Below are positions 61,801-64,000 of a stretch of DNA of 64,000 nt, piece by piece (positions within the stretch are counted from its first letter, which is position 1; each line of letters opens with the position of its first letter). Position numbers: made by a program. The DNA is from an uncultured Candidatus Midichloriaceae bacterium. GTDB lineage: Bacteria > Pseudomonadota > Alphaproteobacteria > Rickettsiales > Midichloriaceae. The stretch covers positions 15,399 to 79,398 of the forward strand of contig CAZGZC010000004.1 of assembly GCA_964529685.1 (NCBI GenBank). The letters run 5' to 3'.

Positions 61801-64000
61801 TTATTTTATCTAACAATGTTCCATTCAATAGTTGTGTGTGTACTTCTATGTCATCACCAGACCATATACCATTATCGTAAATCTTAACCTTAGCAGCTAT
61901 GTTAATATCACCTAAAATACTAAACTCAGTTAGATTCCAATCACCTCCTTTAATCATCTTTTCCTCTTCAGCAAATATTCTAGGCTCTTTAGTATTTAAC
62001 AAAGCATCGATGAATCTTTCAGTACTCATTTTAGTGAGATCTTGTTGACCTAGTTCCCTTTTTAGTTTTTCGCCAGCTCTTTTCTGCCCACTAACTAATT
62101 GATTTTGATATTCTTTAATTTTCTTCAGTGTGTATTCACTTATCACTACTTGATAGTTAGAATTTTGTATCATTTTTTTTATTTTATTGATTTGTTTAAT
62201 ATCTATATATGAGAAATTATAACACAAATATTAAAGTTTTATTAAAAACAAAATTTTGTGTTTATAATATATTGCTCTTGCATATTTTTTATCGATAAGA
62301 TATAGTTTTTTGTGGTTAAAAGCCGCTATAGCACAGTGGTAGTGCACTTCATTGGTAATGAAGAGGTCGCAGGTTCGATTCTTGCTAGCGGCACCATGGA
62401 GAGATGGCCGAGTGGTCGAAGGCGCCTTCCTGCTAAGAAGGTATACGGGTGACTGTATCGAGGGTTCGAATCCCTCTCTCTCCGCCAGATTTTTTAAAGA
62501 GAACTCTTCTCACGTCTTTTTGCTCTAGCGTCAGCACGCCTCAAAACCCCAGTATTTGAGGGCTTTCCAGCGTTTTTGTTTGCTGTTAGACCCGTACCTT
62601 ACTTTCTCCAATTTTGCCATTTTACCCCTAAAATCTCCATTTTTACCCTCTCCATCTCCGATACATGCGAACACTCCGGCTGAAGGTACGCATGTCCTCA
62701 AACCCTGTATTTACCTGGGTTTTAGAGGATTGCTGTTTTTTGACCCCTCACTTTTTAGAGAACAAAAACCGGAGTAGCGATAGAGATTCAAAACGGAGAA
62801 AAAAGAGATATGTGGGATGCTGATACAAACAAAAGCTTATTGCAGCCTCTCAAGGCCCAAGCGCTCAAACAAAAGGTGATCATTTTCTGGAATTGGATTG
62901 TCGGCAGTTAGAAGTTTCTCGCCATAAAAAATAGAATTAGCGCCCGCTAAGAAGCATAAAGCTTGCATTTCATCGGACATCTGCTCTCGTCCTGCCGATA
63001 ATCTAATATAAGATTTGGGCATGAGAATACGTGCAAGTGCAATAGTCTTTACAAAATCAAAAGGATCAACTTCCTTTTGTCCTTCTAGAGGAGTGCCTGG
63101 AATTCGAATTAGTTTATTGATTGGCACAGATTCAGGTGGTTCATCTAAATTTGCCAAAGTCACAAGCATTTTGATACGGTCGTCATTATCTTCACCCATA
63201 CCAATAATACCGCCGCAACAAACTTTCAGACCTGCTTTACGTACTTGATTCAGTGTATCTATGCGATCTTGAAAAGTTCTGGTTGTGATGATTTTGTTAT
63301 AAAATTCTTCAGATGTATCAATATTATGGTTGTAGAAATCAAGTCCTGCTTCTTTTAGCTTTAAAGCCTGATCATCTTTTAGTAAACCCAATGTTACGCA
63401 AGTTTCTAAACCAAGTTTCTTGACTTCTGAAACCATAGAGCATACTTGATTCAAATCCTCATCTCTTGGCCCACGCCAAGCAGCCCCCATGCAAAACCTG
63501 CTAGCCCCAGCTTCTTTGGCTTTTTTAGCAGCCATCAGGACGTCATCTAAAGCCATTAATGGTTCTTTCTTAAGACCAGTTTTATAGTGCGCTGACTGTG
63601 GACAGTAAGAACAATTTTCTGGACAACTCCCTGTTTTTATGCTTAAAAGTGTGCTAATCTGCACCTCGTTCGGTGTAAAGTGTTTTCGGTGGATTGTTTG
63701 TGCCTCATAAATGATTTCATTAAAAGGCAAGTTAAAAATCAATTTAGCTCGTTCTAGAGTCCACTTTTCTAACATAGTTAATCCAAATATATTACTAAAG
63801 GCATAATGTACAAAGCATATGAAAAATATCTGAGCACACTACATAACAGTGGTAAATATCGCAGATTAGGACAGTTCCGTCAAGAAAGCAATACAGGGCT
63901 GCTCGATTTTTCGACTAATGATTATCTCAATCTCAGTCATCATAAAGATATTATAAAAGCAGGAGAAATTGCAGCACAAAGATATGGTATTGGCTCAACA

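Follow-up and report, generated by a model that had tools for sequence, protein, structure and literature searches.

Introduction

The biotin operon known as BOOM, in which bioB is divergent from bioF-H-C-D-A, has been found in Rickettsia buchneri, Wolbachia, Cardinium, Neorickettsia, Lawsonia and Legionella (PMC7750005), and its range has been extended to protist symbionts (PMC13134042). Its repeated lateral transfer is already known, and its spread has been ascribed only vaguely to transposases, phages or plasmids (PMC7750005, PMC13134042). BOOM is a textbook laterally transferred nutritional module, able to turn intracellular parasites into vitamin-providing mutualists. Here we analyzed a copy of this operon at the end of a 64,000-nt stretch of DNA (the window) from an uncultured Candidatus Midichloriaceae bacterium (contig CAZGZC010000004.1), where bioB and the start of bioF follow a tRNA-Ser(GCT) gene. 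In our assessment, the window very probably ends inside a horizontally acquired genomic island located at this tRNA-Ser, of which a non-coding arm of ~320 bp, bioB and the start of bioF are visible, and which would have been moved by site-specific recombination.

With the published BOOM (PMC7750005) the window copy shares the gene order, the BioB clade, a host-discordant phylogeny and, probably, an intracellular host. It is one more BOOM member, and because lateral transfer of BOOM is established, its acquisition is a correct finding that is not new in kind. What differs is that the subclade of the window copy, with 78–95% nucleotide identity, carries the conserved arm of ~320 bp and is located where tRNA-Ser genes end (3′).

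This position resembles that of the classical tRNA-linked genomic islands, which arise when an integrase inserts DNA behind the 3′ end of a tRNA or tmRNA gene. Such islands are said to have been treated by Williams in 2002. The likeness extends to a junction that coincides with a tRNA 3′ end and leaves the gene intact, the deviant composition, the metabolic cargo, the apparent absence from at least one relative (L089; L numbers denote the contigs and loci compared with the window) and the tRNA-end remnants that accompany relocated copies. In contrast to the classical islands, no tyrosine integrase was seen here and no flanking direct repeat was recovered, and the family formed by arm and BOOM uses three isoacceptor genes of one amino acid.

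Recurrent junctions at the 3′ ends of tRNA-Ser genes

The island is preceded by a native tRNA-Thr/tRNA-Ser pair, which is also present in the relatives L081, L082, L089, L091 and L092. The host gene for tRNA-Thr(GGT) lies at 62322–62396 on the plus strand (ARAGORN; Rfam 74 bits) and is followed on the same strand by tRNA-Ser(GCT) at 62398–62487 (ARAGORN, Rfam), an intact host gene that is identical in L089, L091 and the available part of L081 and shows one difference in L092. Its 3′ end, ...TCTCTCCGCCA, forms the junction with foreign DNA, which begins with the non-coding arm (62488–62806, no strand, 42% GC (G+C content)), a segment with homologous arms beside bioB in other genomes. The arm is followed by bioB (62837–63775, minus strand), encoding a BOOM-type biotin synthase of 312 amino acids (aa; TIGR00433 423.8 bits at a cut-off of 225), a radical SAM enzyme with the CxxxCxxC motif. 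An AT-rich intergenic region of 30 nt (63776–63805, no strand, 23% GC) separates its start codon from that of bioF (8-amino-7-oxononanoate synthase), of which the first 65 codons are visible (63806–64000, plus strand; the translation matches TIGR00858 positions 17–56) before the window stops. An earlier note on this DNA, made from the sequence alone, had placed 30 bp between the divergent bioB and bioF starts, which is exactly the distance we find. The gap measures ~20–35 nt throughout BOOM loci and is near-identical within the tight subclade.

A metagenome scan for the tRNA-Ser of the window yielded four contigs, three of them from relatives of the lineage and a fourth, L090, that matches the tRNA only. 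In L091, tRNA-Thr and tRNA-Ser(GCT) are followed by an arm that is 89% identical as far as the contig end, and in L092 the tRNA-Thr/tRNA-Ser(GCT) pair is joined to the arm in a stretch 83% identical to the window. L089 carries the pair at 93% identity, followed by GNAT genes, and has neither the full arm nor BOOM. Furthermore, a Logan contig of run X2 spans 62462–62992, from tRNA-Ser(GCT) through the arm into bioB. In other genomes the arm and operon abut different serine tRNA genes, namely tRNA-Ser(GGA) in L098 (BioB 98%; 93.8% nucleotide identity over 62397–64000), another tRNA-Ser(GGA) in L101 (BioB 91%) and tRNA-Ser(CGA) in L100 (BioB 95%). The junction lies at the same base in the window, L091, L098, L100 and L101, where ...TCTCTCC[G/T]CCA is followed directly by the arm; homology between the window and copies of arm and BOOM elsewhere breaks off at 62487/62488, at the last bases of the tRNA or within them.

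The tRNA-Ser(GGA) genes of L098 and L101 differ from each other at many positions, while the adjoining stretches of arm and BOOM are 94% and 84% identical to that of the window, indicating that the tRNAs are host genes and not cargo. In different genomes, one unit of arm and operon abuts, with base precision, the 3′ ends of tRNA-Ser genes that belong to the respective host and represent three isoacceptor types. By anticodon (GCT, GGA and CGA), this amounts to at least three independent tRNA-Ser junctions, and probably to four. Two more distant BOOM copies lie close to serine tRNA genes as well: the bioB stop of L011 is 4 nt from a tRNA-Ser(GGA), and the bioA stop of L053 is ~13 nt from a tRNA-Ser(CGA). 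As a control, the tRNA-Ser(TGA) at 8892–8981, which has a different acceptor stem (TCCATCC), carries no arm or BOOM. L013, L033 and L056 were not counted as tRNA-Ser junctions, with only housekeeping-type open reading frames (ORFs) and no integrase between tRNA-Ser and bioB. The repeated junctions at GCT, GGA and CGA genes are hard to account for unless some mechanism recognizes the shared tRNA-Ser 3′ end. The suggestion of the earlier note that adjacency to a tRNA 3′ end fits an island thus gains support from the same join at GCT, GGA and CGA tRNA-Ser genes.

We therefore favor a model in which the unit would move by site-specific recombination recognizing the shared tRNA-Ser 3′ end (...GGTTCGAATCCC..TCTCTCC[G/T]CCA). 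After integration, the recombination genes would decay and the operon would stay as a fixed metabolic module. The island would equip an intracellular alphaproteobacterium with the complete pathway from malonyl-acyl carrier protein to biotin, and the biotin autonomy of this genome would be a recent gain.

On its outer side, the arm of BOOM copies located away from a tRNA gene still carries 11–23 nt left over from a tRNA-Ser 3′ end. In L002 the remnant reads CTCCGCCAGAT, and in L004 and L005 it is a 23-nt sequence, AATCCCTCTCTCTCC[G/A]CCA, inside a repeated unit of ~163 bp. This unit (L004 9524–9851, L005 6611–6830 and L002 11289–11340; no Rfam match) is arranged in tandem, with ~2.6 copies at the contig end of L004, has two hairpins and closes each time with the 23-nt sequence derived from tRNA-Ser. 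It may be a remnant resembling attP or attR, or else a satellite.

Neither of the two BOOM papers (PMC7750005 and PMC13134042) mentions a tRNA, and an incomplete literature search found no paper combining "biotin operon" with "tRNA-Ser". The arm and the tRNA-Ser junction hence appear not to have been described before, which we offer as a lead and not as a claim of priority. The conserved arm and the base-precise junction provide a concrete, testable hypothesis for the vehicle of the operon, to which tRNA-Ser targeting is a plausible clue, and the combination of arm and tRNA-Ser could serve as a simple marker to find and date new BOOM acquisitions in metagenomes.

The arm and the operon as a unit

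Homology between the window and related copies runs past the bioB stop toward the tRNA, with 85.5% identity to L002 over 62480–64000, 78% to L003 over 62490–64000 and 86% to L004 over 62596–64000. The arm was found beside bioB in L002, L003, L004, L098, L099, L100 (where it is shortened) and L101, and after tRNA-Ser(GCT) in L091 and L092. Its identity to the window is close to that of bioB third codon positions (87.5% vs. 93% for L098, 65% vs. 66% for L003), and because it diverges at about this rate, it shares the history of the operon and is at most weakly constrained. These values show the arm and the operon diverging together as one unit.

The arm holds a 10-nt inverted repeat with 90% complementarity (62663–62672 and 62686–62695). 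A decayed coding sequence was rejected, as no ORF is kept across copies and substitutions have no three-base periodicity (0.143/0.143/0.140). Likewise, the arm matches no Rfam family and has no consensus fold (−1.8 kcal/mol, one short hairpin), which speaks against an RNA gene, and it is not a dispersed repeat, as the window contains no second copy.

Could the arm instead be the native trailer of tRNA-Ser(GCT) in a donor lineage, either this one or a close relative? BOOM would then once have landed beside the tRNA here, and operon, arm and a few tRNA bases would have been copied out without a tRNA-specific recombinase, spreading by illegitimate or homologous recombination or by transfer mediated by insertion sequences (IS). 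Such a route fits the presence of the arm without bioB behind tRNA-Ser(GCT) in L092, the match of the remnants in L002, L004 and L005 to the tRNA-Ser 3′ end of this lineage, the IS elements that flank BOOM in L001 and L098, and the 49-nt inverted repeats that bracket the operon of L002. We nevertheless regard it as unlikely, because in L098, L101 and L100 complete, host-specific tRNA-Ser(GGA) or tRNA-Ser(CGA) genes adjoin this arm at one and the same nucleotide, which would not be expected from random capture. Moreover, the arm has 42% GC compared with ~30% for the non-coding DNA of the genome, and it diverges in step with bioB, not with the tRNA. Site-specific recombination at the tRNA-Ser 3′ end thus remains our preferred reading of the arm.

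Several copies of the arm are rearranged. In L002, a segment of ~100 bp (10975–11077, corresponding to window 62703–62802) is inverted relative to the window, L003, L004, L092 and L098, with the two halves of a perfect 12-nt inverted repeat (CCCTTGATTCAC / GTGAATCAAGGG) on either side. The end of this segment recurs as 49 nt (46/49 identical) in inverted orientation 155 bp past the bioA stop (L002 5324–5372), so that the operon of L002 is bracketed by inverted repeats. The inversion could be a switch or a one-off rearrangement. In other copies, short palindromic repeats (GTCATTGCGAG...GAAGCAATCC; tandem TGTCATTCCCGCG...GCGGGAA units) are inserted into the arm or replace parts of it (L004 9250–9400, L005 6100–6600, L099 11130–11180). 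L099 represents a decayed island (9917–11123), in which only a 5′-truncated bioB (275 aa) and the arm are left, and GNAT, APH, HAD and TspO genes take the place of bioF to bioA. These genes also adjoin the BOOM of L002 and L005 and follow the tRNA-Ser of L089, and they appear to form a shared mosaic of accessory genes around the operon.

Composition and lateral transfer of the operon

The DNA at the window end is compositionally foreign. Positions 62488–64000 have 39.3% GC compared with 32.2% for the window overall, and none of ~1,220 other windows of 1,513 nt is as high (mean 32.0, sd 2.3, max 37.7). The 349-nt spacer between tRNA-Ser and bioB reaches 42.4% GC, a value attained by 0.04% of 350-nt windows; DNA outside long ORFs has 29.7%. 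Sliding GC thus bears out both the compositional break after tRNA-Ser(GCT) and the GC-richer spacer proposed by the earlier note. Of the 43 ORFs with 200 aa or more, bioB ranks first in GC (39.3%, z = 2.3) and in GC at third codon positions (GC3; 31.3% vs. 22.9 ± 2.4%, z = 3.45), the closest in GC3 being an ORF without known relatives (ORFan) at 58501–59178 with 30.5%. The high GC of bioB at first codon positions (GC1; 50%) is due to amino-acid content. At third codon positions bioB deviates, whereas the 65 codons of bioF are host-like (GC3 24.6%). The break is real and statistically clear, and is borne mainly by the spacer and bioB, with a modest signal in coding sequence.

Relatives of the window's BioB number in the hundreds in metagenomes, at 80–99% identity. 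A scan of one genome per species, with labels as in the records, gave the highest BioB identities to a Jidaibacter metagenome-assembled genome (MAG; L001, 96%), Rickettsiales bacterium DJN.22 (L002, 95%), an alphaproteobacterial MAG (L004, 91%), Legionellales UBA2469 (L006, 90%), "Bartonella sp. A05" (L003, 88%), a Holosporaceae MAG (L005, 86%) and a Bdellovibrionales MAG (L007, 83%); sequences from Rickettsia, Wolbachia, Midichloria, Francisellaceae, Chlamydiaceae, Holospora, Lyticum and a Peranema symbiont followed at 67–79%. In a neighbor-joining tree of BioB alone, a distance method without support values, the window falls within a tight clade whose members are labeled variously as Rickettsiales, Holosporaceae, Legionellales and Bdellovibrionales. 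By BioB matches and this tree, the wider BOOM clade includes sequences of Wolbachia, Rickettsia, Midichloria, Holospora, Lyticum, Legionellales and the Peranema symbiont. The window copy belongs to a very tight, recently spreading BOOM subclade composed mostly of freshwater and wastewater MAGs.

Gene order agrees with this assignment: bioB is divergent from bioF-H-C-D-A in most of the 80 loci with further genes besides bioB, and the near-identical relatives of the window have the published BOOM order. The bioF start of the window continues at 91–95% nucleotide identity into the full bioF-H-C-D-A of L001, L098 and L100, so that the closest copies hold all six genes (bioB, F, H, C, D and A), of which the window shows bioB and 65 codons of bioF. 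The bioH slot of L098 is occupied by a 215-aa alpha/beta hydrolase without NCBIfam match.

Compared with DJN.22, whose lon and BOOM are on one contig of 699,650 bp, the window has 95% amino-acid identity and a synonymous divergence (dS) of 0.28 in bioB, 79% and a dS of 2.9 in lon, and 60% with saturated dS in mrdA. Given bioB dS of 0.28 against 2.9 for lon and saturation for mrdA, the operon was exchanged between the window lineage and that of DJN.22 long after their split. The Jidaibacter MAG has a similar contrast, with BioB 96% and Lon 59% identical to the window; its BOOM contig is only 11.5 kb long, and mis-binning is therefore possible. BioB relationships do not track the host, as DJN.22 (BioB 95% vs. 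Lon 79%) and the Legionellales MAG (90%) illustrate. Lateral acquisition, as the earlier note had proposed, is as well supported as sequence data permit, considering the dS values, the mixed labels of the BioB clade and the deviant composition; every feasible check among those suggested in that note turned out in favor of its reading.

The copies occupy different sites. BOOM lies between a FabH-like gene and an AbiEi gene in L002, beside a DDE transposase (IS element) and AbiE genes in L098, next to dapA in L100 and next to lpxB in L101. In the Legionellales MAG (L006 5533–10936), hemA and prfA cleanly frame the six-gene operon, and the arm is absent. We take hemA and prfA to be adjacent in E. 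coli and other gammaproteobacteria. Across copies, BOOM has 35–40% GC and its flanks range from 31% to 51%. Searches of plasmid DNA and proteins returned ordinary bioB genes only, at most 66–69% identical, and the phages and viral contigs searched contained neither the arm nor BOOM.

Transport of the operon as cargo of transposons or IS composites, with the adjacency to tRNA-Ser being incidental or reflecting a general insertion hotspot, would account for the DDE transposase adjoining bioA in L098, the IS630-type helix-turn-helix fragment in L001 and the 49-nt inverted repeats around the L002 copy. However, the stretch that is homologous between copies is bounded by the bioA stop (or a point at most ~270 bp past it) on one side and the tRNA end on the other, and not by IS ends common to the copies, whose types of IS differ. 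We consider this explanation quite improbable in view of these boundaries, the at least three and probably four independent junctions at the same base, and the two more distant BOOMs (L011 and L053) that directly abut tRNA-Ser.

Many organisms in the samples share this tRNA, so that contig ends within it are uninformative and a chimeric assembly needed checking. In that case two organisms' contigs would have been joined through the shared tRNA-Ser and the break would be an artefact. The window stems from a metagenome-type contig of 114 kb, and the Logan contigs of L081, L082 and run X1 break exactly in this tRNA, which is common to many organisms. A chimera is nonetheless very improbable: independent assemblies repeat the join of tRNA-Ser(GCT) and arm in diverged sequence (L091, 89%; L092, 83%; the run X2 contig), the word depth in the source-like run X1 is alike on both sides (~3.8–5 on the host side, 4.7–4.9 on the BOOM side), and equivalent joins are found on contigs of 19 kb, 79 kb and 240 kb. 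The L081 and L082 contigs ending in tRNA-Ser were rejected as island polymorphism, since a widely shared tRNA breaks de Bruijn graphs.

Vertical inheritance, by which the operon would be ancestral and GC-richer only because biotin enzymes are conserved proteins, is hardly credible: the GC1 of bioB, the host-like GC3 of the bioF fragment and an alpha/beta-hydrolase gene homologous to window 56381–57082 near bioB in L038 and L040 could be cited for it, but bioB has a dS of 0.28 in a genome pair whose housekeeping genes are saturated, Legionellales and Bdellovibrionales MAGs fall inside the tight clade, and the genomic contexts of the copies are unrelated. The hydrolase gene was itself rejected as conserved synteny, being ubiquitous in alphaproteobacteria.

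A riverine metatranscriptome contains bioB contigs 99% identical to that of the window, which hints at possible expression; DNA carry-over is an alternative source. Toward its 5′ end, the bioB coding sequence also resembles Rfam family RF02574 (Rickettsia sRNA10), with 60–73 bits, under the gathering score of 97. These matches (L002 9997–10342 and L098 10002–10349) correspond to the 5′ third of bioB, ~63430–63775 in the window, and the family may derive from a bioB-based sequence.

The far side of the operon and a candidate recombinase

Beyond bioA, homology within the tight clade ends at the bioA stop or up to ~270 bp past it. In L101 and L102, degraded genes for a DUF2924 protein and a large serine recombinase (residues 136–470) lie there, convergent with bioA, and in L098 and L001 only a C-terminal recombinase stub is present, cut off by IS elements. 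These remains are homologous to an intact DUF2924/serine recombinase pair located 2 kb from the BOOM of Wolbachia wStri, and all copies of the pair in the tight subclade are degraded. The locus thereby resembles integrative elements with serine recombinases such as the wStri pair, with remains of the same two genes beside bioA in four copies. Unlike in those copies, the pair of wStri is on the bioB side, without a nearby tRNA. Integration by serine integrases produces no long direct repeats, and the fact that none was recovered for arm and BOOM would be in keeping with this.

The remains suggest an ancestral element of ~7–8 kb comprising the arm, BOOM and the recombinase, although this link is circumstantial. 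Whether the DUF2924/large serine recombinase pair was the recombinase of the unit is a tentative proposal and the weakest part of the model, to which we give rather less than an even chance. That the recently spreading subclade rides a dedicated element of ~7–8 kb, consisting of the arm, the six bio genes and this pair and targeting the 3′ ends of tRNA-Ser isoacceptor genes, is a possibility that we take seriously but still judge a little more doubtful than probable. If true, this element would be the long-missing vehicle that moves the operon among unrelated intracellular bacteria sharing protist hosts, and its carriers would be the MAGs labeled Rickettsiales, Holosporaceae, Legionellales and Bdellovibrionales.

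A number of observations weigh against an island moved by site-specific recombination and have to be set beside the recurrent junctions. Neither the window nor the relatives examined yielded an intact integrase or a second junction, and the available flanks of L098, L053 and L001–L006 contain no directly repeated tRNA 3′ end past bioA. A homolog of the serine recombinase is absent from the entire 64-kb window, and the visible 1.5 kb of the island contains no integrase. Enzymes of the large serine recombinase class are not known to target tRNA genes as a rule, so that the recombinase remains may be bystanders. L089 is not a clean empty site, as ~27 arm-like bases are kept after its tRNA, followed by a GNAT gene fragment. 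In L092 the arm is followed by a DCC/DUF4166 gene in place of bioB, so that the arm is not strictly tied to BOOM, and L005 and L006 have the operon with little or no arm. Finally, the composition signal in coding sequence is modest, bioF being host-like, and transfer may have run either into or out of the window's lineage.

The host and the remaining window

Upstream of the island, the window encodes Icd, MnmE, Lon, PBP2, MutS, ClpX, flagellin, VirB4-type proteins and a MavL-like effector. Its Lon is 85–90% identical to metagenomic proteins of the L081/L082 lineage, 78–79% to that of DJN.22 and ~60% to those of Midichloria, Jidaibacter and Holosporaceae, and the closest Lon relatives are labeled Rickettsiales, Midichloriaceae or Holosporaceae. 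Together with 32% GC, the VirB4-type genes and the MavL-like effector, these labels point indirectly to a probably intracellular host.

The region from tRNA-Tyr to tRNA-Thr (57100–62300) looks like a decaying variable region with ORFans. Within it, a gene for a MavL-type macrodomain effector (60508–62227, minus strand) is split into an N-terminal ORF (61793–62227, minus strand; profile positions 1–116) and a C-terminal ORF (60508–61776, minus strand; profile positions 112–319). At the break, a 17-nt direct repeat (AACAATGTTCCATTCAA) flanks an AT-rich insert of ~33 nt, and the C-terminal ORF contains a tandem duplication at the protein level (PSTEKKDKLEENLLQFT..SNI twice). In L081, the closest relative, an undivided MavL-type gene of 519 aa occupies this place. 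An ABC transporter is likewise reduced to a C-terminal stub (60236–60466), whereas L081 retains the complete gene of 573 aa.

Cumulative GC skew rises to ~28 kb, falls to ~42 kb and rises again (~27000–42000), a course that may reflect only a block of minus-strand genes (lon, mutS and clpX). Two adjacent sodium:solute symporter paralogs of 473 and 471 aa are encoded at 43857–46706, and at 50595–55077 a VirB4-like gene is followed by a 751-aa ORF without Pfam match.

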